Assembly (NCBI GenBank): GCA_963784195.1
Contig: CAWARA010000013.1
Location: 104,687-168,686 of the forward strand
Reading direction: 5' to 3'
Length of the DNA: 64,000 nt
Origin: an uncultured Acidobacteriota bacterium
GTDB taxonomy: Bacteria > Acidobacteriota > Vicinamibacteria > Vicinamibacterales > 2-12-FULL-66-21
A program made the translations under genes and the position numbers. A model generated the notes under the pieces. That model made no database searches. It was given only the letters and a program-made list of their open reading frames with translations, and was not told where the DNA came from. Numbering within the stretch: the stretch's first letter is position 1; every line of letters begins with the position of its first letter. Positions 2,495 to 58,611 of the stretch are shown here, piece by piece.

Positions 2495-4069
2495 ATGCGC
2501 GTTCATTTCGTCAATCCGAGCGACCTGTCTTTCGGCACCGCGGTGATCACGCCGCGGTGGCTGTACGTGCTTGCGGCTGCGACGCCGGAGCACTTTGGAA
2601 CACCATCGATCGTCGACGAGACGCTCGAGCCATTCGATCCTGAGTCAGTCCAGCCGGGCGACGTCGTGGGCATCGGGATCCACACGGCGAACGTCCTGCG
2701 CGGCTATCAGGTCGGGCGTATCGCGCGTGAGCGCGGCGCCGTCGTCATCTTCGGCGGTATCCATACGAGCCTCTATCCGGACGAGGCACGCGAGCATGGT
2801 GCGGCGCACGCGATCGTGACCGGCGACGGCGATTTGATCTGGTCGACGGTTCTCGAGGATGTCGCGGCAGGCCGGCTGGCGGCACGGTACGATGGCGGCC
2901 GGGTCGATGGCGATGCTTTTCTTCCGGCGAGATGGGATCTGCTTCCCAAGGATCGCTACATGTGGGGCTCGGTGCAGACGGTCCGTGGCTGCCCGAAGCA
3001 TTGTTCGTTCTGTTCGGTCTGGCGCACTGACGGGCAAAAACCGCGACAGCGCGGCGTCACCGGCGTCGTTCGCGAGATCGTCGAGCTGAGGCGCCAGGGA
3101 TTCCGGTTCATCCTGCTTGCAGACGACAACTTCTACCCGGTGACGCTGCAGGACCTGGCCCAGGCCAAGCGACGCTCCGATTCCCGCCAGTTCGAAGTGC
3201 TCAGCGCGCTGCGACGCGAACGGTTCGAGCTGATGGAACGGCTCGAGCAGCTGCCGGGCGATTTGGTGTTCTACACACAGATCACGATGGAGGCCGCGGA
3301 GGATCCGGAATTCCTCGCGGCGATGAAGCGCGCGCGTATTCGTGGCGCGCTGGTGGGCGTCGAATCGGTTACTCCGGAGGGCTTGAAAGCGGTCTTCAAG
3401 AACTTCAACGAGGCTGGTGAGGCCCTGGTGGACAGGTTGCAGGCGTTCAAGCGGCACGGGGTCCACGTGCTGGGCTCGTTCATCTTCGGTCTGCCGACCG
3501 ACAACGCCGAGACGTTCAATGCCACGGCCGATCTCGCGAAGCGATCCGGCGTCACATTTGCGCAGTTCGTGATGTTGACGCCGTTCCCGGGTACGGTGGA
3601 CTTCAACAACTGGGAGCGCAACGCGGGTGCGGTCCAGACGGTCGACGGCGTGCCCCTTACCCGCTACTGGCTCATACCCTCGGCGTCACGACCGAAGATC
3701 TACATGCCGCATCCGAGCATGAACGCCAGCCAGATCCGCGCCGGCACGCAGGAGGCATGGGACGAGTTCTACAAGCTGTCCGCGATCTGGGAGCGCTCGT
3801 CGTGCGTCCGTTCGCTGCGCGCGCGCCTTGTATTCGTGCTGATATCCAAGCTCTATCGACAGATGTACGCGAACACCGGGATCGCCACGGATAGCGCACG
3901 AGTCGCGAGGTCGGCCAAACGCGCCCGGCTGCTGGCTCGTGGCGTCCGTCGCTTCTTCATTGCCGCGCCGATGCCCCACCTGCAGGAACCGGCAGCGCCG
4001 GCGGCGCCCGCGCCCGTGCCGGCTTACGGTGTGCGCGATGCCGCCCAGGACGTCTGGAACTCTGCGTAG
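2495..4069 (+). CDS. B12-binding-domain radical SAM protein (class B radical SAM)
   Basis: The track ORF is 2366..4069, but its 5' part overlaps the previous gene. ATG 2495 (MRVHFVNPSDLSFG...) fits better. CPKHCSFCSV is the CxxxCxxC 4Fe-4S motif and follows a B12-binding-like N-terminal domain. Confidence 0.85.
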   Translation: MRVHFVNPSDLSFGTAVITPRWLYVLAAATPEHFGTPSIVDETLEPFDPESVQPGDVVGIGIHTANVLRGYQVGRIARERGAVVIFGGIHTSLYPDEAREHGAAHAIVTGDGDLIWSTVLEDVAAGRLAARYDGGRVDGDAFLPARWDLLPKDRYMWGSVQTVRGCPKHCSFCSVWRTDGQKPRQRGVTGVVREIVELRRQGFRFILLADDNFYPVTLQDLAQAKRRSDSRQFEVLSALRRERFELMERLEQLPGDLVFYTQITMEAAEDPEFLAAMKRARIRGALVGVESVTPEGLKAVFKNFNEAGEALVDRLQAFKRHGVHVLGSFIFGLPTDNAETFNATADLAKRSGVTFAQFVMLTPFPGTVDFNNWERNAGAVQTVDGVPLTRYWLIPSASRPKIYMPHPSMNASQIRAGTQEAWDEFYKLSAIWERSSCVRSLRARLVFVLISKLYRQMYANTGIATDSARVARSAKRARLLARGVRRFFIAAPMPHLQEPAAPAAPAPVPAYGVRDAAQDVWNSA

Positions 4070-10528: not shown

Positions 10529-10596
10529 GACTACATCACTATAATCGCTAACGCGAATCCCACGTCTGCGGTTCCTTGTCAATAATCGCTTCCGTG

Positions 10597-10708
10597 CCGT
10601 GGTCCGTCGCTCGTCGCTCGTCGCTCGGAGTGCCCCCCGTCGCCGCCGGGCTCTTCGAGCCACGAGCGACGAACCACGGACCACGGCCCACGGACCACGG
10701 ACCACGGA
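10597..10708. repeat. Palindromic intergenic repeat, family 1 (CCGTGGTCCGTCGCTCG arms), copy 1
   Basis: Left arm ccgtggtccgtcgctcgtcgctcgtcgctcgga pairs with right arm tcgagccacgagcgacgaaccacggaccacgg, followed by extra CCACGGA repeats. It lies between divergent genes. Confidence 0.8.
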
Positions 10709-12909: not shown

Positions 12910-12999
12910 CCGTGGTTCGTCGTGCGTCGCTCGTGGCTCGGAATGCCTCTAGAACGGTATGGGTCTTACGAGCTACGAGCGACGGACCACGAACCACGG
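12910..12999. repeat. Palindromic intergenic repeat, family 1, copy 2
   Basis: ccgtggttcgtcgtgcgtcgctcgtggctcgga ... acgagctacgagcgacggaccacgaaccacgg. Same arm sequence family as 10597-10708. Confidence 0.8.
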
Positions 13000-17392: not shown

Positions 17393-17743
17393 ATGAAGCG
17401 CGAACGCAGTGCGGCGTCAGACGATGCCCGGGACGTCGTGAAGGGCACGCTGGACATGCTGATCCTGAAGGCCCTCGACATCTCGCCAACCCATGGCTGG
17501 GGCGTGGCGGATCGCATCGAGACGCTGTCTCGCGGCGTTTTCCGGCTGCAGACAGGGACGCTGTATCCCGCGCTGCATCGGCTGCTGCGCAACGGATGGG
17601 TCGCGGCCGAGTGGCGCACCAGCGACAACGCGCGCCGCGCGCGCTACTACAAGCTCACGGCTGCCGGGCGCAAGCAACTGGACGAGGAACGCTCCTCATG
17701 GCTGCGCGCGGCCGTCGCGGTGAACCGAATTCTCGATGTATAG
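17393..17743 (+). CDS. PadR-family transcriptional regulator
   Basis: 116-aa ORF. KGTLDMLILKAL...HGWGVADRIE......GTLYPALHRLLRNGWV...W..S.N.RRARYYKLT..G is the PadR winged-helix pattern. It sits directly upstream of an ADOP permease, as in the acidobacterial PadR/ADOP pairing. Confidence 0.9.
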   Translation: MKRERSAASDDARDVVKGTLDMLILKALDISPTHGWGVADRIETLSRGVFRLQTGTLYPALHRLLRNGWVAAEWRTSDNARRARYYKLTAAGRKQLDEERSSWLRAAVAVNRILDV

Positions 17744-17795
17744 CACGTGGGCCCGTGAGCACGTCAGCACGTCAGCACGTCGCACGTCGCACGTG
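17744..17795. repeat. Heptamer microsatellite (GCACGTC / CGCACGT units), family 2, copy 1
   Basis: cacgtgggcccgtgagcacgtcagcacgtcagcacgtcgcacgtcgcacgtg lies between the PadR stop and the permease RBS. It is the reverse complement of the motif at 58537-58611. Confidence 0.75.
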
Positions 17796-17802
17796 AGGAA
17801 CC

Positions 17803-20436
17803 ATGTCCTGGTTCGAAGGCATCCGGCAGCGAATCAGCGAAGCATTTCGGCCCGGTCGCGCCGATCGCGACCTTCAGGACGAGCTGCGCGATCACCTCGA
17901 ACGCGAGATCGAACGTCAGCTCGCGGAGGGCGTTCCGATCGAGGACGCACGTCGGCGCGCCCTGGTGCGCGCCGGAGGTTTGCATCAGGTGCGCGAGGCC
18001 GTTCGCGACGAACGGCCGGGCCGTATCGTCGAGGATGCCATCAGCGATCTGCGGGTGGCCGTCCGGGCCGCTCGCCGCAATCCGGCGTTCACGCTCGCTG
18101 TCGTCGTGTCCCTGGCGCTCGGTGTCGGTGGCACGACGGCGGTCTTCAGCGTCGTGAACGCGGTGCTGCTGCGGCCGCTGCCGTACGTCCAGCCGGATCG
18201 CCTCTACATGATGCGAGTCTGGTGGAACGATTTCTCCTCGACCCTGTCGCCGGCAGACTTCGTTGCGCTCGAGGAGCAGGGAACCGACGTCGCCAGCGTC
18301 GCCGCATACTTCCCGCCCGAGGACGGGTTCGCGATGGGCACTGCGGAAGGTCCGCAGTTGATCGATGGATCGACGGTGACGGCGGGGCTCCCGGGTGTGC
18401 TCGGAATTTCTCCGATCGTGGGAGCAGGCTTCTCGTCGGTGCCGAATGCTCCCGAAGCGTTGATCGGTGAAACGCTGTGGCGGGAACGATATGGCGCGTC
18501 GCCCGACGCAATCGGCCAGCCGATCGTCCTCGACGGAGATTCGTACACCGTCGTCGGCGTCATGCCCGCCGGGTTCAACATTCCGGGACAACGCAACGGA
18601 CAAGCCTGGCTGAAGGCGCTGAGCCGTCAGCCGACTCGCCGCGGGCCTTTCTATTACATAACGGTCGTGCGCGTAAAGGAGGGGAACAGTCCGGACGCGG
18701 TCGCGGCAAAGCTGACGTCATCCGCGTCGGCATTCCTGCGCGAGCGCTTTGGCGTCGTACCGGACTGGCAGTACCGCCTGCGGCCTCTCCGTGACACGCT
18801 GGTCGGCGACATCCGTCAGTCGCTCCTGTTGCTGCTTGGCGCGATGGGGCTCGTGCTGACCATTGCGGTCGTCAACGTTGCGAATCTGTTTCTCGCACGC
18901 GGCTCGGCGAGAGCGAGGGAGATCGCCGTGCGCGCGTCGCTCGGTGCCGGACGCGGCCGTCTCGCTCGACATTTGCTGGCCGAATCGGCACTCCTCGGTG
19001 CCATTGGCGGCAGCGGGGGAATGGTGCTCGCCTACCTGCTGCTCAACCTGGCTGGTAAAGAAGCTGTTCGCGTGCTTCCGCGCGTGAACGAACTGCGCGC
19101 GGACACCGGGATGGCGCTCTTCGCGCTCGCGTGTGGCGTCGGCGCCGGCTTGATTGCCGGCATCGTCCCCGCGATCCGCGTTCCGTGGGGCAGGCTCGCG
19201 ACGTTTCTTCGCGAGGGCGATCGCAGCGCGAGCTCGGGCCCGGTACACGGCCGCGCGCGACAGGCACTGGTCATCGCCGAGATCGCGCTGACGGTGACCG
19301 TCCTGACCGGCGCGGTGCTCCTCGCCAAGAGCATGATGCGCCTCCAGGACGTCAACCCCGGATTCCGTGCGGACGGGTTGGCGTCTTTCCGGATCACGTT
19401 GCCCGAGAACCCGTACGACAACGACGAACGTCGCGCGGCTGTCATCGCGGCCCTCGAAGAACAGCTGCGCCGCGACGTCAATGCGTCATCTGTTGCGTTC
19501 GCGTTCTCGCTGCCGCCGCACCTGCTCGTCATGTCCAACAACTACACCGTCGAGGGCGCGGCCGTGGGCTCGGCAGGTGCGTCGGGCGTGGCTGAATGGA
19601 ACGTCGTTTCCGATCGCTACTTCTCCACGATGGGGATCCGGCTGATCGAGGGCCGGGACTTTGGATCCGTGGATCGCGCGGAGTCGCCGTCGGTCGCGGT
19701 CGTCAACGAATCTTTCGTCAGGCGTCACTATTCTGATGGCCGCGCAATCGGCAAGAGACTGAAGGGCGGCAACTGGGATCCATCGGATCCGTGGACGACC
19801 ATCGTCGGCGTTGTCGCGGACGTTCCATACGGGAAGGGATTGTGGGGCGGTGCCGACATGACGGTCTATCGACCGCACTCGCAAAATCGCTGGGTGCAGT
19901 CCACATACGTCATCCTCAAAGCGCCAGGCGACGCATCGCGCATCATGCCCGCGGTGCAGCAGTCGGTGAGGAAGATCGACCCGAATCTTCCGGTGCGTGA
20001 TTTCTCGATGATGAGCGAACGCATTCACACGTCCATGCTCGAGCCGCGCTTGCGCAGCGTTATCTTCACCATGATCGCCGCGCTGGCGCTGGCGCTGTCG
20101 ATCACCGGAATCTACGGTGTGATGGCATATCACGTCGCCCAGCGCCGCCGCGAAACCGCAATCCGCCGAGCCCTCGGCGCCCGCGTCGCCGACGTCGTCG
20201 GCCGCACGCTCGCAGCCGGCCTTCGCCTTACCGCCGCCGGCCTCGTCCTCGGGACCGTGGGCGCCCTGCTCCTGACGCGCAGCCTGTCGTCGATGTTGTT
20301 CCATGTCAGCCCGCACGATCCCGCAACGCTCGTCACGGTCGCGCTCGTTCTGGCAGGTGCGTCCGTGCTCGCCTGCTCGGTCCCCGCCCTGCGCTCGTCC
20401 CGCGTCGATCCCGCAAGCATCCTGCGCGACGAGTAA
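17803..20436 (+). CDS. ADOP-family duplicated FtsX/MacB-like permease
   Basis: 877-aa ORF. The N-terminal cytoplasmic helix region (MSWFEGIRQRISEAF...DLQDELRDHLE) is followed by two MacB_PCD/FtsX-type modules (TM, large periplasmic domain, 3 TM, twice). Confidence 0.9.
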   Translation: MSWFEGIRQRISEAFRPGRADRDLQDELRDHLEREIERQLAEGVPIEDARRRALVRAGGLHQVREAVRDERPGRIVEDAISDLRVAVRAARRNPAFTLAVVVSLALGVGGTTAVFSVVNAVLLRPLPYVQPDRLYMMRVWWNDFSSTLSPADFVALEEQGTDVASVAAYFPPEDGFAMGTAEGPQLIDGSTVTAGLPGVLGISPIVGAGFSSVPNAPEALIGETLWRERYGASPDAIGQPIVLDGDSYTVVGVMPAGFNIPGQRNGQAWLKALSRQPTRRGPFYYITVVRVKEGNSPDAVAAKLTSSASAFLRERFGVVPDWQYRLRPLRDTLVGDIRQSLLLLLGAMGLVLTIAVVNVANLFLARGSARAREIAVRASLGAGRGRLARHLLAESALLGAIGGSGGMVLAYLLLNLAGKEAVRVLPRVNELRADTGMALFALACGVGAGLIAGIVPAIRVPWGRLATFLREGDRSASSGPVHGRARQALVIAEIALTVTVLTGAVLLAKSMMRLQDVNPGFRADGLASFRITLPENPYDNDERRAAVIAALEEQLRRDVNASSVAFAFSLPPHLLVMSNNYTVEGAAVGSAGASGVAEWNVVSDRYFSTMGIRLIEGRDFGSVDRAESPSVAVVNESFVRRHYSDGRAIGKRLKGGNWDPSDPWTTIVGVVADVPYGKGLWGGADMTVYRPHSQNRWVQSTYVILKAPGDASRIMPAVQQSVRKIDPNLPVRDFSMMSERIHTSMLEPRLRSVIFTMIAALALALSITGIYGVMAYHVAQRRRETAIRRALGARVADVVGRTLAAGLRLTAAGLVLGTVGALLLTRSLSSMLFHVSPHDPATLVTVALVLAGASVLACSVPALRSSRVDPASILRDE

Positions 20437-34576: not shown

Positions 34577-34666
34577 CCGTAGTCCGTGGTTCGTAGTTCG
34601 TGTCTCGCCGGACGACTCAATCCCGCGACGAGCGACGGACTACGGACTACGGACCACGGACCACGG
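34577..34666. repeat. Palindromic intergenic repeat, family 1, copy 3
   Basis: ccgtagtccgtggttcgtagttcgtgtctcgc ... gcgacgagcgacggactacggactacggaccacggaccacgg. Confidence 0.75.
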
Positions 34667-43636: not shown

Positions 43637-44087
43637 GCTTCTCGATGTTCCGAACCTGTTCGGCCCAGCCCTCGTCGTTCATCTTGAGCGCATCGGCCCG
43701 GCGGTGCACCGGAAGCGAGTCGAACCCGGTCTCGATGACGGTCAGCTTCGTGCCGCCCGAGACTTCCTCGAGCTCGAACACGACGAGCGTGCGCGGTTCG
43801 CCTGAGTAGTCGACGTTCGGATCGACGGCGTACGGATGCCAGCGCCATGAAAACAGCCGTTCCGGCACCATCTGCTCGACGAGCACCTCGAAGACAACGT
43901 GACGGTATCCCTCAATCGTGATGGGCCCCCGCGCCGCCTGACCGGGGGCGAACGTGGCCCCTTTCAGGTTGACGCCGAACCACTGGCTCAGCTCGTCGGC
44001 ATTGGTCAACGCGCGCCAGACCCGCGATCTCGGGGCCTTGATGACAATCGTCTTGTGAATGCGATCCGTACTCACCATGTCGGCCAT
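43617..44087 (-). CDS. SRPBCC / AHSA1-like (activator of Hsp90 ATPase homologue) domain protein
   Basis: AGGAGG RBS before ATG 44087 (MADMVSTDRIHKTIVIKAPRSRVWRALTNADELSQWF..). This is the typical ArsR-AHSA1 gene pair. Confidence 0.85.
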   Translation of the reverse strand: MADMVSTDRIHKTIVIKAPRSRVWRALTNADELSQWFGVNLKGATFAPGQAARGPITIEGYRHVVFEVLVEQMVPERLFSWRWHPYAVDPNVDYSGEPRTLVVFELEEVSGGTKLTVIETGFDSLPVHRRADALKMNDEGWAEQVRNIEKHVATNA

Positions 44088-44162
44088 GCAACCTCCTGGT
44101 TGCATATTACCAGCGCTGTCTGAGAAATGCAACTCAACGGTTGCGCTTATGAGATGGGCACC

Positions 44163-44501
44163 GGACGGAGGGGACGGGGGTCACGGAACAGGCTTCAACT
44201 CGGAGAAACGGAGGAACGGAGGCGCCAAGTCAGAAGGCTGCGCGGGGTGGTCACCGGGTCCGCCGATGCCGCCGCTCGCGCGGCGGGCGATCAATCGACC
44301 CCCCACGGACACAAGCTGCTCCCGCACCACAGGCAGCTTGTGTCCGCGGGGGGTCGATTGATCGCTCGGCCCGGCCGATGGCCGGGCCGGCATCGGCCGC
44401 TGACCGGTGACTTGCCTGCGATGGCTTATCGGCGTTTCTCCGTTCCTCCGTGTCTCCGTTTTTGAAGCTTGTTCCGTGTTCTCCGTCTCCTCCGTCCCCC
44501 C
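44163..44501. repeat. ~340-bp nested-hairpin repeat, family 4, copy A
   Basis: Outer arms ggaggggacggggg..ggaacaggcttcaactcggagaaacggaggaacggagg pair with ctccgttcctccgtgtctccgtttttgaagcttgttccg..ctcctccgtcccc. The inner 32-bp stem spans 44288-44364 with 1 mismatch. A 9-bp hairpin ggcccggcc/gat/ggccgggcc is also present. Confidence 0.85.
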
Positions 44502-44533
44502 AAAAAGCTGGGGTGCAGGGGTCGGTGCACGAC

Positions 44534-44904
44534 ATGGCGATCTGGCTCTCGGATCCGTTTCACTTCCGGGCCTACGCCGAGATGCTGCATTCGGTGATGA
44601 CGGGTCAGCCGTCAGTGGAAAAGGCGACAGGCGTCCCGGTGTTCGAGTATTTCGGCAAGGATCGCGAGCTCTCGGAAGTATTCAACAACGCAATGACGAT
44701 GTTCAGCGCGTTCGTGATTCCCGCCGCGCTCGACGTCTACGACTTCACAGGGATTGGCACGATCGTCGACGTTGCAGGCGGTCACGGACACGTGCTGACG
44801 TCCATCCTGCAGCGCTACCCGTCGATGCGCGGCATCCTCTGGATTTCGGAAAGTTGATCGATCTGGAGATGGTGGTGATGACCGGCGGCCGCGAAGCGCG
44901 CTAA
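44534..44904 (+). pseudogene. Class I SAM-dependent O-methyltransferase remnant (N-terminus and internal part missing)
   Basis: MAIWLSDPFHFRAYAEMLHSVMTGQPSVEKATGVPVFEYFGKDRELSEVFNNAM...IVDVAGGHGHVLTSILQRYPSMRGI contains the SAM-binding motif. In another frame, ..LIDLEMVVMTGGRE.. is the typical OMT C-terminus. The dimerisation domain and ~100 central residues are absent. The remnant starts ~30 nt after repeat copy A. Confidence 0.65.
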
Positions 44905-44918
44905 GCGCCGGTTAGGCG

Positions 44919-46826
44919 CTAGGAGGCTTCGGCCTTACGTCCTTTGCGCATCGCCGTGGTGGTGGCGCTGACACTGACACTGCTGTGGCCTACCACGGCA
45001 GCAAGGTCTTGTCCGAAGGCGGTGTGCGCCTCCACGGCGGCCATGATCTGTTCGTCGAGCAGGCCGGCCGCCGCCGGGCCGTCCAACGAGGCTCGCTGCA
45101 TGAACAGCTGCCGGGCGCAGTCCAGGTTGTCTTTGAGGCGTCGCCGGATCTCGTCCTCGTCTCTGCCGCCGTCGGAGTCGGCGGTGTGCATCTCCTCGGC
45201 TTCCTTCAGGAGCAGCGCAGCGTAGTCGCGCAGCTCCGAGAGCGCCTTCAGCTCCTGCGTGAGGTGCTTCATCAGCGCGGCCGAGTGGCGAATCAGGAAC
45301 GTCGCGAACCGCATGCGTGACTGATGCACGATGCCAGTCGATTCTGTCTCGGTCGCGTCAGACTCCTCGGCGTAGACGACGGCCAGCGTCTCCTCCTGCA
45401 GGACCAGTGGAATCGCGATGGCTGATGTGGCAAGCGTGCCGAAGGGTACCAGCCTGCCGTCGCTCAGCTCTGAGCCGCTGATGCTTTCGACGTCACGAGA
45501 GGCCACGGCGCGCGTCAGGAGCGAGTCCATGGTGAGCGGGATCACCAGCTTGGACATGTCCGTGGCTTGATCGAAGCCGATCTGCTGTTCGCCCTCGAGA
45601 CGGTTGCCTTTGACGCGGAAGAGTGCCACGCGCGAGTAGTGCACCGACAGCTGACGGACGGTTGCGCTCAGCAGGTCGGTCATGCTCGTCGCGCCGGCGA
45701 GATCGTCGGCAGCGTGCACGGCAGCGTCGAGCAGCGTGCTGAGCCGCTCCACGTCGTTGCGCAGCAGGCTGGCCTCGCTCCTGGCCACGTCGCTCTCGTG
45801 CGAGCCCTCGCGCGCGCGCGCTTCGGCTTCCGCTGCGGCGGTCAGCCGATCCTCGAGATGACGAATGCTCGACTCGTAGTCGGCGTGCGCGCTCTCGAGC
45901 GCCAGCACGCGGGCGTTGCTCGCGTCGAGCCGAGCCGACAGCGCGTCGCGCTCGGCGACGACGACATCGCGCTCGGCCGCGGCGAGGTTGCGGTCCGCAG
46001 CGGCGGCATCGCGTTCGGCTGCCGTCAGGGTCCGCTCGGCGATGAGCGCGTCGCGTTCGGCGGCGATGGAATCGCGTTCCGCCCTGGCGGAATCCCTCGC
46101 GATGGCGATCTCGTCGCGCGCCATCGCGATCTCGTCGCGCTCGGTCGCGATCCCTTCTCGGGCGATCTCGAGCGCGTGGAGGTCGGCGCGGACGGCGCTC
46201 AGATCTCCGATCAGCTGGTTGTTCTCGGCCGCCTCGATCTCCAGCTGGGCGCTCAGACGCGCGGCCTCCGACAACGCCGCATCGAGCAGCCCGCGTGTCT
46301 CGCGGAGGTCGTCTTCCGCCGCGGCTCGTGCGTCCGCTTGCTCGCGCAGGGCGTTCTCCGCATCCTGACGCGCCAGTTCGGTCTGGTCGTGCGCCGCGCG
46401 GACGTCCGCGACGTCGCGTGTCAGCGCGTCGAGACGGTCCGCCTGCGTGCCGATCTCGGAGTGCAGGGATTCAATCTGGGAATTGGCGGCGGCGAGCGAG
46501 ATCTCGAGCTCTTCGGTCCTGGCGCGCTGCGTCTCGATCTCTCGATGCGCGACGTCGAGCAGGCCGCGCGCTTCGTCCTGGACCTTCTGCGCAGCGGCTC
46601 GCGCCGCCGTGCCCGCGGCGCTATGCAGCCGCCGAATCAGATCCTGCAGATCCTTCTCGATCTGCGGCGTGCCGCCGGCGGTCGTTTCCACAGTACGGAC
46701 CGCCGCATCCAGCGCCTCGCGAAGCGAGCGGATCTGTTCCAGCGAGGCCTCTGCCTGGCTGGCCAGCAGCCGCGTGAGCAGGGCCGACGTTTCTTTAGCA
46801 GCGTAGTCCCGGAATTCCATCGCCAC
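44919..46826 (-). CDS. Coiled-coil protein with C-terminal GAF-like domain
   Basis: 635-aa intact ORF. The N-terminal ~400 aa are Ala/Glu/Arg-rich heptad sequence, including 11 tandem 7-aa ERD-type repeats. The C-terminal part (..LLSATVRQLSVHYSRVALFRVKGNRLEGEQQIGFD...AIAIPLVLQEETLAVVYAEE) looks GAF-like. Confidence 0.8.
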   Translation of the reverse strand: MAMEFRDYAAKETSALLTRLLASQAEASLEQIRSLREALDAAVRTVETTAGGTPQIEKDLQDLIRRLHSAAGTAARAAAQKVQDEARGLLDVAHREIETQRARTEELEISLAAANSQIESLHSEIGTQADRLDALTRDVADVRAAHDQTELARQDAENALREQADARAAAEDDLRETRGLLDAALSEAARLSAQLEIEAAENNQLIGDLSAVRADLHALEIAREGIATERDEIAMARDEIAIARDSARAERDSIAAERDALIAERTLTAAERDAAAADRNLAAAERDVVVAERDALSARLDASNARVLALESAHADYESSIRHLEDRLTAAAEAEARAREGSHESDVARSEASLLRNDVERLSTLLDAAVHAADDLAGATSMTDLLSATVRQLSVHYSRVALFRVKGNRLEGEQQIGFDQATDMSKLVIPLTMDSLLTRAVASRDVESISGSELSDGRLVPFGTLATSAIAIPLVLQEETLAVVYAEESDATETESTGIVHQSRMRFATFLIRHSAALMKHLTQELKALSELRDYAALLLKEAEEMHTADSDGGRDEDEIRRRLKDNLDCARQLFMQRASLDGPAAAGLLDEQIMAAVEAHTAFGQDLAAVVGHSSVSVSATTTAMRKGRKAEAS

Positions 46827-47127
46827 GATTCAGTGTCCTGTCGCCTGTGGTTCGTGACCTGGCCCGCCGCGCCGGACATCCTCCGGCAGCGTGGCCTCGC
46901 GCAGTATCCCCAGCACTCCATCTAGCCAGCGGGTCGCCGCAGGTTCGACCTCTACGCCACGAGCCACCCAGGGGACACAAGGGAACCTCTCCGGTCTGCA
47001 ACTCCAGGACCGCGCCTGTGATGGTCGATCCGGGCAGATTCGGGTGGATCGGTGCTGCCGGCGGCCTACAAATCAGTTTGGGGGACTGCGCTTTTGTAAT
47101 GGCTCTGTCAAAGGTGTCAGGGGTCCC

Positions 47128-47444
47128 GGGAGGGAGGGGACGGAGAGGACGGAACGAGCTTCAAAAACGGAGACACGGGGGAACGGAGACGCGCAGAGGT
47201 CGCGCCTGGTGAGCCGATGTCGCCGCGCGCGCGCGGCGAGCGATCGACCGATGCCCCGCGGACACAAGCCGCTCCACCCTTCGCATCCGGCTTGTGTCCG
47301 TGGGGCATCGGTCGATCGCCCGGCCCGGCCGACGGCCGGGCCGACATCGGCTGGTGAGGCGCCGCGCGTCTTCCGTTTTCCTCCGTTTCTCTGTGTCTCC
47401 GTTTTTGAAGCTCGTTCCGTTCCCTCCGTCCCTCCGTTCGGGGG
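47128..47444. repeat. ~320-bp nested-hairpin repeat, family 4, copy B
   Basis: Same architecture and orientation as copy A. The outer arms are gggagggaggggacggagaggacggaacgagcttcaaaaacggagac.. / ..gtctccgtttttgaagctcgttccgttccctccgtccctcc. The inner stem spans 47241-47318 with 1 mismatch. The hairpin ggcccggcc/gac/ggccgggcc is present. Confidence 0.85.
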
Positions 47445-47446
47445 TG

Positions 47447-48962
47447 CTATGGGTGCTTTGGCGCGATTTGACGACGAATGACACCGGGCTTGCCGTCGAT
47501 GTCACGGGTGCGCGTCAGGCCGAGGAGCTCGGTCATCAGGGGATAGACATCGACGTTCTGAACTTCAGAAATGACTGTGCCGGCACTGATATCTGGACCG
47601 GCAATGATGAAGAGCGCGAGCATGCCTTCGACGGCGGGATCCCAGCCGTGTGCGCCCCACCGTTCGACCTTGCGATCCGATGATGATGGGGCGGACGTCA
47701 TCATCGTCCATGATTCGTTCATGACGACGACGACGTCGCCGATGCGGGGGTCGGCGCGGTAGTGATAGCGCTCGGGGAGCTCCTCGCGGAGATAGGCGCG
47801 GCCATGCTGAAGACGCGCGTTGATCTGATTGCGCACCGTGACCGCGGTGGTTCGCCCTCCTGTCACGTGCAAATTCGCGACAGGACCGCCGAACGCGTAT
47901 TTGATCTGGCCTGAATCGATCAGTGAGTCGAGGCGAACGGTCTGGGACACGCCGGTTTCGATCATCCCGTGGTCTGACGTCAGGACGAGGTAGACGCGGT
48001 CACGAATCGGCAGCGACTCGATACCAGCCATCAGCAGGCCCAGCATCTGGTCGACCGTGGTGGCGGCCTGCGCGATCGCGGGCGAGTCCAGCGGTCCGCG
48101 GTGCGAGGCCGTGTCCACGTCGCTGAAATACAACGTGATGACATGCGGTCGCCGCTCTTCCGGCAGGCGGAGCCAGTCGAGCAGGGCGTCGACACGGGCG
48201 GCGTTCGGGACGTCCCCGTCATACGTCCTCCAGTGCGTCGGGCGGATGCCCTTGATGGCCGCCTCCGAACCGGGCCAGAAGTAACACGCGGCCACCATCC
48301 CCTGGCGCTCCGCCGTGACCCAGATGGGTTCGCCGCGATACCAGGTGCCGTCTTCCACCGCCGTTCGATCGCCCAGCGCATAGGTCTGAGCGCGCGCTGG
48401 ATCGTAGAAGGAGTTCGCGACGATCCCATGTCGCTGAGGGCGCAGGCCGGTCACGAGCGAGTAGTGATTGGGGAACGTCAGCGACGGGAACACCGGCACC
48501 ATTCCTCGTGCCCGCGCACCCCGCTGCATCACGCGCTGGAAGTTCGGCAACTGCGAATCTGTCGAGGTAATCCGCCCGAAAGCCGTCGAATGACACCAGA
48601 ATCAGATAGGGCTTGTCGCGCTGCTCCGGACGATTGATGCCGCCGCTTCCCGCAGCTGCCGCCGGCGCCGGGTCGCCAGGCAAGGCCGCGGGGCTGACGC
48701 GGCCGCCGCAGCCGCTGATGGCAACCACGAACGCCAATGCGAGAGCGCCGCGGATCCAGGGGGCACGGGACGCGGATTTTCGCGGATCTCCCTGGGGAGC
48801 ACGGGACGCGGATTTTCGCGGATCTTCCTTGGGGGCACGGGACGCGGATTTTCGCGGATCTTCCTTGGGGGCACGGGACACGGATTTTTGCGGATCTCGT
48901 TGGGCGTCACGGGACACGGATTTTTGCCGATTGCCTTTCAAGGGATTCCGACGTTGAGACAT
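47447..48962 (-). pseudogene. Nucleotide pyrophosphatase/phosphodiesterase (NPP, alkaline-phosphatase superfamily) lipoprotein, one frame change; repeat-containing 5' region
   Basis: ..WIRGALALAFVVAISGCGG contains a lipobox. ..KPYLILVSFDGFRADYLDRF is in one frame. LPNFQRVMQRGARARGMVPVFPSLTFPNHYSLVTG (catalytic Thr motif) ... runs to 47447 in another. The shift lies near 48551-48560. The only in-frame start upstream (48962) adds 67 aa made of 12-aa repeats, so the true start is unclear. Confidence 0.75.
48757..48945. repeat. Five tandem copies of a 36-bp unit
   Basis: CACGGGA(C/A)..GGATTTT(C/T)GC.. unit starts fall at 48764, 48800, 48836, 48872 and 48908, an exact 36-nt period. All six frames are open across it. 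Confidence 0.9.
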
Positions 48963-48980
48963 GTGGCGTCAATCTGCAGA

Positions 48981-49040
48981 GATCCGCGTCCCGTACCCCT
49001 TGGATCCGCGTCCCGTACCCCCCTGGATCCGCGTCCCGTA
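48981..49040. repeat. Three inverted partial copies (~23-nt period) of the 36-bp unit
   Basis: gatccgcgtcccgtacccc occurs at 48981, 49004 and 49026. It is the reverse complement of ggggcacgggacgcggatc in the tandem units. These copies lie across the putative start codon (48962) from the direct array. Confidence 0.8.
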
Positions 49041-58536: not shown

Positions 58537-58611
58537 CACGTGCGTACGTGCGGACGTGCGATGTGCGACGTGCGACGTGCGACGTGCGGACGTGCGGACG
58601 TGCTACGTGCC
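58537..58611. repeat. Heptamer/octamer microsatellite (ACGTGCG x ~10), family 2, copy 2
   Basis: The units acgtgcg, tacgtgcgg, acgtgcg, atgtgcg, acgtgcg, acgtgcg, acgtgcgg, acgtgcgg, acgtgct and acgtgcc fill the gap between the response-regulator stop and the HAD start. Confidence 0.85.

Follow-up and report, generated by a model that had tools for sequence, protein, structure and literature searches.

A previously undescribed family of dispersed composite palindromic DNA repeats in soil and rhizosphere Acidobacteriota

Two large palindromic repeats, A and B, lie about 2.6 kb apart in the window (the whole 64,000-nucleotide stretch of acidobacterial DNA that was analysed) and are copies of a previously undescribed, dispersed, non-coding family of soil and rhizosphere Acidobacteriota. 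The reading that we hold to be probable is that they are high-copy, non-autonomous, composite palindromic DNA repeats, a form of selfish DNA and neither an RNA gene nor the limits of a cassette, which would be mobilised in trans and whose central stem would have been shaped by template switching. A repeat family with members elsewhere had been anticipated in the initial annotation, and the arm motif was indeed found at 69 public loci (3 in genomes and 66 in metagenomes), which yielded 49 non-redundant complete elements of 179-354 bp, with search patterns biased toward well-preserved copies. Among the identities proposed at that stage, a MITE-like or large REP/BIME-type element turned out to be the right one: further copies exist, covariation is supported, and the copies are not the ends of a known IS.

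Architecture of copies A and B

Copies A and B share 73% identity over 337 nt (E 5e-48), and each matches its own reverse complement at 72-74% over the full length. Their limits as initially annotated (44163-44501 and 47128-47444) were essentially right, and so was their direct orientation, since the core runs from hp1 to hp2 in both; no third copy was found within the 64-kb window. Folding with RNA parameters, a check suggested together with that annotation, gave minimum free energies (MFE) of -275.8 kcal/mol for A and -264.9 kcal/mol for B, far below those of dinucleotide shuffles (-160 +/- 6 kcal/mol; z of -20.0 and -18.7, respectively), and 0 of 100 shuffles folded equally well.

Each element is a composite of two inverted terminal arms (about 62-70 nt) and a core (about 135-147 nt). 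The arms consist of five or six conserved ACGGAG words, spaced 8-9 nt, around an ACGGAAC..GCTTCAA box; 96 of them fit one profile, with a mean identity of about 80% between elements, and 41 contain the family word GGGGACGG. In this conservation of sequence they resemble protein-binding terminal repeats. A fixed TTTTT/AGTT mismatch between an element's own arms is present in 18 of the 49 elements, the AGTT allele showing no correlation with core orientation. Facing arm pairs are never more than 210 nt apart in the 657 kb examined, and the element ends are ragged, lengthened by extra 9-mers.

The core is made of a closing helix and two small, sequence-invariant hairpins, hp1 and hp2, with a 32-bp central stem between them that keeps its length and pairing while its sequence is free to vary. 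Both small hairpins have an outward-facing CCGA foot, which is the layout of a REP doublet, and this foot was found in 29/31 cores on the top strand and 31/31 on the bottom strand. Relative to the element, the core lies in plus orientation in 14 cases and in minus orientation in 17. As a single strand, the core of copy A is predicted to fold into a four-way junction. The single mismatch initially described in each central stem was confirmed (A.C in A, G.T in B), as was the perfect 9-bp hairpin GGCCCGGCC-GAY-GGCCGGGCC, here hp2. The features of both copies are as follows.

44163-44497, no strand assigned: copy A, complete composite element, 335 bp (arm HMM matches 44164-44229 and 44430-44497; MFE)
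44163-44229, plus strand: A left outer arm, ACGGAG-word array, AGTT allele (GGCTTCAACTCGGAG) (arm HMM)
44263-44396, plus strand: A type-1 core module, 134 nt, CCGATG...CATCGG
44263-44266: CCGA foot of A hp1
44269-44286, plus strand: A hp1, CCGCCGC-TCGC-GCGGCGG, sequence conserved family-wide (helix 2: 5/6 pairs never vary)
44287-44365, plus strand: A central hairpin, 33-nt arms (44287-44319 and 44333-44365), 13-nt loop, one A.C mismatch
44368-44388, plus strand: A hp2, GGCCCGGCC-GAT-GGCCGGGCC, perfect pairing, stem invariant family-wide
44393-44396, bottom strand: CCGA foot of A hp2
44430-44497, minus strand: A right outer arm, TTTTT allele (GTCTCCGTTTTTGAAGC) (arm HMM)
47129-47440, no strand assigned: copy B, complete composite element, 312 bp (arm HMM matches 47130-47196 and 47375-47437; MFE)
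47129-47196, plus strand: B left outer arm, TTTTT allele (arm HMM)
47214-47350, plus strand: B type-1 core module, 137 nt
47240-47319, plus strand: B central hairpin, 32-nt arms (47240-47271 and 47288-47319), 16-nt loop, one G.T mismatch
47322-47342, plus strand: B hp2, GGCCCGGCC-GAC-GGCCGGGCC
47375-47440, minus strand: B right outer arm, TTTTT allele (arm HMM)

The core of copy B is bordered by a direct repeat, CTGGTGAG (47206-47213 and 47351-47358), and this 8-nt repeat is restricted to the lineage of B and L066.

The family, its gene settings and its variation between relatives

The elements are always intergenic and have no coding capacity; the genes on either side are convergent in 11 cases, divergent in 11 and in tandem in 19. 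Whole composites were found again at unrelated loci with 87-91% identity, the closest relatives of A and B being L004_11062 (87% over the full length) and L006 (91%), respectively. Extrapolated to a whole genome, the 2 copies of the 64-kb window and 6 additional ones in about 550 kb lead to an estimate of the order of 100 copies. Viral contigs scanned with the arm and core patterns gave no match, nor did plasmid and phage records in distant blastn searches, and nothing scored when a spurious ORF read across the element was used against protein databases to map the spread of the family. The only neighbouring genes recurring across loci encode large MacB/FtsX-like permeases (ADOP-type by eye) and another large paralogous family, and therefore represent genome background.

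Comparisons between relatives indicate how these elements change. Three relatives, L070, L071 and L072, share the gene order of the window and lack arms at both orthologous sites, A and B; in L073, with flanks 96-97% identical to the window, an element is present at site A. At three loci (L009/L055, window A/L073 and L006/L066), strains differ by an inversion of the interior. L034 and L065, which represent a single locus, are set apart by a clean core indel of 151 nt, which could be a deletion instead of an insertion, while the core has been replaced at the L002/L058 locus, and the same core is found within arms made of GGAGAAG words, a second arm family, in L025 and in L004/L030. Orthologous copies also decay, that in L001 being decayed and that in L013 intact. 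The composite thus reaches new intergenic sites as a unit, cores are gained, lost and swapped, and copies decay, lose modules and recombine. Inspection of 49 element ends and 36 core junctions for target-site duplications, which the initial annotation had recommended, revealed no consistent direct repeat, and the alignments of filled and empty sites were too diverged to give a base-level insertion point or define a target motif. A flank exchange was also observed at L006/L066, and site B in L070 is occupied by a different palindromic element.

The two copies had initially been described as bracketing a coiled-coil/GAF gene. For the enclosed 633-aa protein, Pfam returned no match to GAF at a threshold as loose as E<=10, and an exact-product look-up with two alternative starts found it not on record. 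The genes peptidase - phosphodiesterase - coiled-coil gene - O-methyltransferase - AHSA1 - ArsR stand in an ancestral order, identical in relatives that have neither element, and the pair does not bracket the gene in any meaningful way. That no transposase is present was correct: the element encodes none, none lies nearby and none was seen between paired elements. We give almost no credence to A and B being composite-transposon ends or integron-like cassette boundaries by which the coiled-coil gene was acquired. The direct orientation of two elements 2.6 kb apart, with similar pairs at six other loci, would fit such an arrangement, but the coiled-coil protein belongs to a widespread, conserved family, the ORFs enclosed by the other pairs lack an HUH/Y1 motif in the motif scan and, as read by eye, look like ordinary genes of metabolism, no integrase appeared in Pfam scans of the neighbouring genes, and an attC-type R-box was not apparent. 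Synteny in the element-free relatives refutes this origin; the enclosed genes are not cargo and the A-B pair defines no cassette. The O-methyltransferase gene is a pseudogene, with a deletion adjoining an element.

Compensation in the central stem and its possible origins

The mirrored differences initially seen between the central stems of A and B are real and extend to the 31 cores. In these, both sides have changed in 24 of 55 pairs overall and in 23 of 32 pairs of the central helix; the paired share of cells is 98.1%, versus 89.8% in shuffles (0/500 reached that value), and slid controls gave 28-41%. Covariation, which the initial annotation had proposed to test, is supported in the central stem, where arm identity reaches 0.95 for the two arms of one element as against 0.77 for arms of different elements. 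The same claim did not hold for the CGGAG-rich outer arms, whose identity with their own partner (0.81) hardly differs from that with the arms of other elements (0.80), and compensation across the whole nested hairpin was rejected, the outer arms being conserved in sequence without covariation. In copy A, the central hairpin is the sole part with arm compensation.

Of the explanations advanced beforehand, the copying of one arm from the other is the best fit for the central stem. The arms of this stem are closely spaced, and replication template switching or intramolecular conversion would copy one onto the other again and again, generating the apparently compensatory substitutions; elements still able to fold may in addition be copied preferentially. 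Template switching between inverted-repeat arms produces both arm homogenisation and spacer inversion (PMC8604942), and from these two signatures we infer it as the source of compensation here. Quasipalindrome template switching would account jointly for both, and also for the homogenisation of the short-spacer stem and not of the distant outer arms. Such switching is a process of mutation rather than a family of elements, and is silent on how new loci are reached. Homogenisation is not general, since 18/49 elements keep the fixed TTTTT/AGTT arm mismatch.

Selection for a foldable single strand would yield equal covariation. Only foldable copies might be recognised and copied, as in a REPIN-like quasi-species, without any mechanical copying between arms, and we regard this as possible, though somewhat unlikely. 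Compensatory hairpin changes in REPINs follow the same pattern and have been explained by such selection (PMC3116915). The sequence invariance of hp1, hp2 and their feet, beside a spacer stem that retains just length and pairing, agrees with it, as do the decay of the L001 copy with that of L013 intact, which indicates that pairing is not kept at every locus, and search patterns that favoured well-preserved copies. Selection alone, however, leaves unexplained both the inversions of spacer and interior and the lack of pairing maintenance in the outer arms, which make up most of the hairpin; it is compatible with template switching, and the two are not exclusive.

A very stable fold and strong covariation would also suit a core acting as a structured non-coding RNA, either a riboregulator or an sRNA, whose fold is under purifying selection, but we consider this highly improbable, and the undescribed structured RNA initially suggested was not borne out. 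Rfam offered no family, a scan at permissive E-value returning spurious matches only (the best, to a miRNA, scored 25.6 bits, the gathering score being 90). A scan for promoter-like sites found none, and by construction both strands form the structure equally well. Single-sided mismatches in core orientation are symmetric (about 15 G:U-type and 20 A:C-type), some copies lack the core at a locus otherwise unchanged, and the core, found in both orientations (14 plus/17 minus), points in opposite directions relative to its flanks in different strains at fixed loci. The lack of wobble bias, together with interior inversions and cores that are gained, lost and swapped, argues for mobile or recombining DNA and not structured RNA. 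Roles as host signals have been proposed for REP/BIME, ERIC and Correia elements, and host-recruited RNA or DNA signals (bidirectional terminators, mRNA 3' stabilisers, RNase III or nucleoid-protein sites) could maintain the structure here, an explanation that we find improbable, if less so than an RNA gene. Elements lie within a few nucleotides of gene ends (B begins 7 nt 3' of the phosphodiesterase stop codon), on both strands the TTTTT of the conserved arm box follows immediately 3' of a GC-rich stem, and the other palindrome at site B of L070 looks as if a hairpin were wanted there. Divergent-gene settings, however, are equally common (11/41), relatives lack elements at both sites, orthologous copies decay, and single-sided mismatches relative to flanking transcription show no wobble bias (95 G:T-type versus 101 A:C-type). 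A terminator role was discarded after a consensus scan that did not flag the elements and an allele-orientation test in which 3 cases had the T-run allele facing incoming transcription and 4 did not.

Known systems and a candidate route of mobilisation

The family is close in design to REPIN/REP doublets and BIMEs, which are likewise high-copy, intergenic, non-coding and mosaic with other motifs, lack target-site duplications, and have two small conserved inverted hairpins with a conserved 5' tetranucleotide foot and a spacer keeping length and pairing by compensatory changes. The REP foot is GTAG or CGTC, in contrast to CCGA here; hp1 and hp2 are unrelated in sequence, the spacer stem reaches 32 bp, the doublet sits inside a second, much larger word-array inverted repeat, and no RAYT was found in the 657 kb. 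With MITEs that have long terminal inverted repeats and come in modular variants (Correia, ERIC/IRU, BOX, Nezha) the elements share size range, terminal inverted repeats, intergenic dispersal, presence/absence polymorphism, internal indel variants and whole-element palindromy. They are short, non-coding, multicopy and dispersed, with common terminal inverted repeats and empty sites, but have no fixed-length target-site duplication; their ends are ragged, no cognate IS was found in the 657 kb, their arms are tandem word arrays and their interior is an independently assorting module.

In Acidobacteria, Y1 transposases have been linked to hairpins in high copy or to terminal inverted repeats, namely the class 3 TnpA-Y1-associated hairpins (Quentin et al., 2018; PMC6006769) and the TIRYT/TIRtron repeats (Di Nocera et al., 2013; PMC3733652), and this phylum, the one studied here, is a main host of both. 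Class 3 hairpins are high-copy (about 600 in Solibacter), as we infer for this family, and their foot is CnGA, with CCGA, as here, in the Solibacter and Legionella entries; the hairpin body differs from their consensus CnGA-GCCGCGACCGTnAGGGAGCGG (Table S1 of PMC6006769), and a scan of 657 kb for this canonical hairpin showed it to be absent, apart from a single chance match that had 4 mismatches. Some TIRYT terminal repeats are, as here, long, self-complementary and repeated. The TIRYT motif GGGGWSAS occurs in 10/96 arms versus about 4 in shuffles, an enrichment too small to be taken as a shared feature. In contrast to both systems, no Y1 gene was observed in the 657 kb.

Mobilisation would take place in trans, by an enzyme encoded elsewhere, and a single-strand HUH/Y1 route (RAYT, TIRYT or class 3) would be the most likely, given the lack of target-site duplication and the ragged ends. 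Six-frame motif scans of 657 kb for RAYT-type (HUH...Y(x)NP) and class 3-type (NHVH ... YV[VI]xEQ) signatures found none, nor was an autonomous IS with the same ends present in that sequence, and an HUH/Y1 enzyme as mobiliser is only a lead. A bolder and rather doubtful proposal is that of an undescribed modular system of self-folding DNA, in which the REP-doublet-like, CCGA-footed core would be mobile by itself and land in the apex of larger word-array hairpins, one or several uncharacterised single-strand HUH-type enzymes would drive both layers, and the nested repeats would serve as frequent flip-flop switches near promoters and gene ends; arm families built of ACGGAG, GGAGAAG, GTGCGCAG and CCGTGGT may then represent one architecture. 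A superfamily probably exists, of which the family described here is the visible part.

A large, well-defined repeat family is hereby added to a dominant and poorly studied soil phylum. It provides a natural example of strong base-pair covariation made at the DNA level without RNA function, and with it a practical warning for covariation-based RNA discovery. If the core is tied to a Y1 enzyme of the class 3/TIRYT type, it would offer a tractable substrate for that HUH family, whose activity, to our knowledge, has never been tested. The elements also break assemblies, the ends of many contigs falling inside one of them, adjoin deletions and rearrangements, and lie against promoters and stop codons, and therefore matter for MAG quality and genome plasticity.

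Structure and family of copies A and B

The sequence at 43900-47700 holds two copies of the element:

44163-44497, copy A, composite palindromic element
47129-47440, copy B, composite palindromic element

By BLASTN the copies are 73% identical over 337 nt (E 5e-48), each gives a full-length match to its own reverse complement, and no copies besides A and B were found in the window. The single strands fold at -275.8 (A) and -264.9 kcal/mol (B), against about -160 +/- 6 for dinucleotide shuffles (z-scores of -20.0 and -18.7, respectively). The initial annotation had described outer arms rich in CGGAG, a central stem with one mismatch and a 9-bp hairpin, and every one of these sub-features was found in A and B. 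The central stem measures 32-33 bp, its single mismatch being A.C in A and G.T in B, and the perfect hairpin reads GGCCCGGCC-GAY-GGCCGGGCC in both. A second small hairpin (CCGCCGC-TCGC-GCGGCGG in A) lies on the opposite flank of the central stem, so that a closing helix and three hairpins make up the interior and the element is polar.

A and B represent a new family of palindromic DNA repeats that are composite, nested and non-autonomous. It comes closest to REP doublets/REPINs/BIMEs and to long-terminal-repeat MITEs, yet departs from each of these kinds in a defining feature. An exact-motif scan of representative genomes returned three loci in two MAGs, and a slightly relaxed motif 66 metagenome loci, nearly all from a single set of related samples. 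With an arm profile, 137 arms were detected, always as facing pairs 60-210 nt apart and never around a gene; many are located at contig ends, as expected of a repeat that breaks assemblies. Redundancy removal left 49 complete elements of 179-354 bp (one was later found to be the reverse complement of another). By a crude ORF caller, essentially all of them lie between genes, and the adjacent ORFs are often no more than tens of nucleotides away; the contexts are convergent in 11, divergent in 11 and tandem in 19 cases. At six loci a second element lies 1.3-4.5 kb away, like the A/B pair; extrapolation from this paired-locus density and from two copies in 64 kb suggests a per-genome copy number on the order of a hundred. 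The family was absent from the viral contigs, plasmids and phages searched. A short-form element, with arms and an unrelated AT-rich core, was observed on a 1.2-Mb contig (L003 3996-4178, CAVZOM010000005.1) whose record is titled 'uncultured Actinomycetes bacterium', which could be either cross-phylum presence or a taxonomic mislabel.

Modular arms and cores

The arm consensus is GGACGGAGGGGACGGAGGGAACGGAACAAGCTTCAAAAACGGAGACACGGAGACACGGAG, in which strongly conserved ACGGA words and an ACGGAAC..GCTTCAA box are joined by low-information linkers of 2-3 nt. Termini are ragged because a variable number of extra GGGGACGGA units lengthens the ends, where no target-site duplication is visible. The box occurs as two discrete alleles, CTCCG-TTTTT-GAAG and CTCCG-AGTT-GAAG; 19 elements carry TTTTT in both arms, 18 have one of each and two are AGTT/AGTT, a class undersampled by the search pattern used. 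The core found in A and B (type 1; 133-147 nt) is present in 31 elements, in the order CCGATG, first small hairpin (hp1), central stem, second small hairpin (hp2), CATCGG. Either strand therefore opens with CCGA-TG followed by a small hairpin, and the CCGA foot is kept on the top strand of 29 of the 31 cores and on the bottom strand of all 31. In other elements the core is of a second type, or is short and not palindromic.

Composites recur whole at unrelated loci (A and L004_11062, 87% identity; B and L006, 91%), while A shares only 84% with its own orthologue in the related contig L073, even though the flanks there are 96-97% identical. Two versions of one locus (L034/L065) differ by a clean 151-nt core indel, and at another (L002/L058) the core has been replaced. 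The type-1 core also lies within arms of a second family, which combines GGAGAAG/GGGGAGAAG words with a CTTGTCTTTTGAAAAGGAG box, at two loci:

L025 2900-3290, type-1 core in GGAGAAG-word arms
L004 7380-7690 (the same locus as L030 ~3700-4010), type-1 core in GGAGAAG-word arms

Core and arm modules assort independently. In L070 (~2436-2612), a relative with the same gene order, the site orthologous to B holds another kind of palindromic element, about 190 nt long, whose arms are 8-nt periodic GTGCGCAG/GTGCGCGG repeats, a third word family. This points to a hot spot or to a superfamily whose words can be exchanged. Other repeats in the window are:

48749-49040, palindromic element in the phosphodiesterase-S15 peptidase intergenic region
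10596-10707, tandem-7-mer-armed hairpin
12910-12999, tandem-7-mer-armed hairpin
34577-34652, tandem-7-mer-armed hairpin
17742-17794, short-period tandem array, AGCACGTC x 6.9, just upstream of the permease gene 17803-20436
58538-58610, short-period tandem array, ACGTGCG x 9.9

In the first of these, 4.8 copies of a 36-nt unit (GGGGGCACGGGACGCGGATTTTCGCGGATCTCCCTG) face 2.7 inverted copies of a 23-nt unit, and the element appears in ORF lists as PRKIRENPRPVP-type peptide repeats. The three hairpins (CCGTGGT / ACGGACC, CGCTCGT) are a separate multicopy 'word-array' palindrome family of the same genome. Gene 17803-20436 encodes a large MacB/FtsX-like permease, of the ADOP type by eye.

Origin of the central-stem compensation and possible mobilisation

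In an alignment of the 31 type-1 cores, both partners changed in 24 of the 55 predicted pairs, and 23 of these lie in the central helix, which has 32 pairs. Paired cells amounted to 98.1%, against 89.8% in shuffled alignments, none of 500 shuffles reached the observed values, and pairing fell to 28-41% when partners were slid. The structural observation in the initial annotation is correct and statistically strong. The compensation is real and limited to the central stem, whose arms are 95% complementary within an element, stems of different elements being 77% identical. The two small hairpins and the closing helix are almost invariant, and hence sequence-conserved. Outer arms match their own partner at 81% and other elements at 80%, and in only 2 of 48 elements is an arm most similar to its own partner; they therefore behave as ordinary sequence-conserved terminal repeats.

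The cause of the compensation lies at the DNA level. A structured RNA, one of the identities originally considered, is not borne out: single-sided mismatches have no wobble bias, either in core orientation (about 15 G:U-type vs 20 A:C-type) or, for tandem-context elements, in the orientation of flanking transcription (95 vs 101); cores lie in both orientations within the element (14 plus, 17 minus); and an Rfam search of A and B gave no meaningful match. Moreover, interiors are flipped between strains, being inverted against identical flanks at three two-strain loci (L009/L055, window A/L073 and L006/L066). Between A and L073 the small hairpins are swapped while the central loop keeps its orientation, which means flips at two nested levels. 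L006 1717-2035 and L066 3973-4299 share an identical right flank and outer right arm, their interiors are inverted relative to each other and their left flanks differ completely; this is a rearrangement between strains that the element mediated. Template switching from one arm of an inverted repeat to the other is documented to yield exactly the two outcomes observed here, homogenised arms and an inverted spacer (PMC8604942; also PMC7202029). It would be expected to be most effective at the short-spacer central stem. The proposal that one arm is copied from the other is the best explanation for the central stem. Selection for foldability among propagated copies, already proposed for REPINs (PMC3116915), is compatible with template switching and could likewise produce the covariation; the orthologous copy has decayed in L001 and is intact in L013, so pairing is not upheld at every locus and this selection stays a live, non-exclusive explanation.

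No plausible mobiliser gene is encoded in the 657 kb of sequence examined, and six-frame scans of it gave no RAYT-type or class 3-type HUH...Y signatures. No HUH/Y1 motif occurs in the ORFs that lie between paired elements, and these ORFs look like ordinary metabolic genes. The genes that recur next to elements encode large MacB/FtsX-like permeases, assigned by eye to the ADOP type. Three features point to Y1/HUH enzymes: missing target-site duplications, hairpins arranged with a foot, and the phylum itself. TIRYTs are a sharply defined acidobacterial group with long terminal repeats on both sides (PMC3733652). Class 3 TnpA-Y1 genes occur mostly in Planctomycetes and Acidobacteria; on either side they carry hairpins that have a CnGA foot and number about 600 in Solibacter (PMC6006769). 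The foot is the sole match between class 3 hairpins and these elements, the class 3 hairpin consensus is absent from the sequence examined, and the TIRYT motif GGGGWSAS is in just 10 of 96 arms. We regard Y1/HUH mobilisation as 'a lead, not a membership'.

Gene neighbourhood and gain or loss of elements

The 633-aa protein encoded between A and B is a member of a widespread conserved family. On the contigs of relatives with 84%, 71% and 96% identity, the genes run S15 peptidase - phosphodiesterase - coiled-coil gene - full-length O-methyltransferase - AHSA1 - ArsR, and a 78% relative (a record without DNA) follows this order as far as it extends. No arms were found at the sites orthologous to A and B in L070, L071 and L072, whose intergenic regions align around the insertion points; in L073 an element is present at site A and the contig stops about 76 nt from site B. 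Since the gene order is the same without the arms, the neighbourhood is ancestral and the elements have been gained or lost within it. This rules them out as cassette boundaries, and the bracketing of the gene is incidental. A GAF domain had also been attributed to the coiled-coil protein, in which Pfam found none; the 21-nt periodic repeats at 45944-46171 in its gene translate into 7-residue repeats (AERDxxx...).

The O-methyltransferase is a pseudogene (44510-44899) with three deletions relative to L073, within surroundings that are ~97% identical: ~93 nt close to the 3' end, an internal stretch of 253 nt, and 338 nt whose loss takes away the N-terminus. The last of these deletions ends ~10 nt from element A. 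The phosphodiesterase gene (47447 to ~48870, minus strand) is apparently frameshifted at ~48500-48560, with the N-terminal YLILVSFDGFRADYL motif in ORF 48219-48962 and the remainder in ORF 47447-48550. Relatives have a single protein of 433-446 aa; the split could mean that the gene is truly a pseudogene, or it could stem from an indel in the assembly.

Just upstream of the AHSA1-ArsR operon, two TGCAACC...GGTTGCA-type palindromes (44085-44130), conserved in L070 and L071, probably form an ArsR-family operator, and the distal palindrome is about 16 nt from the end of element A.
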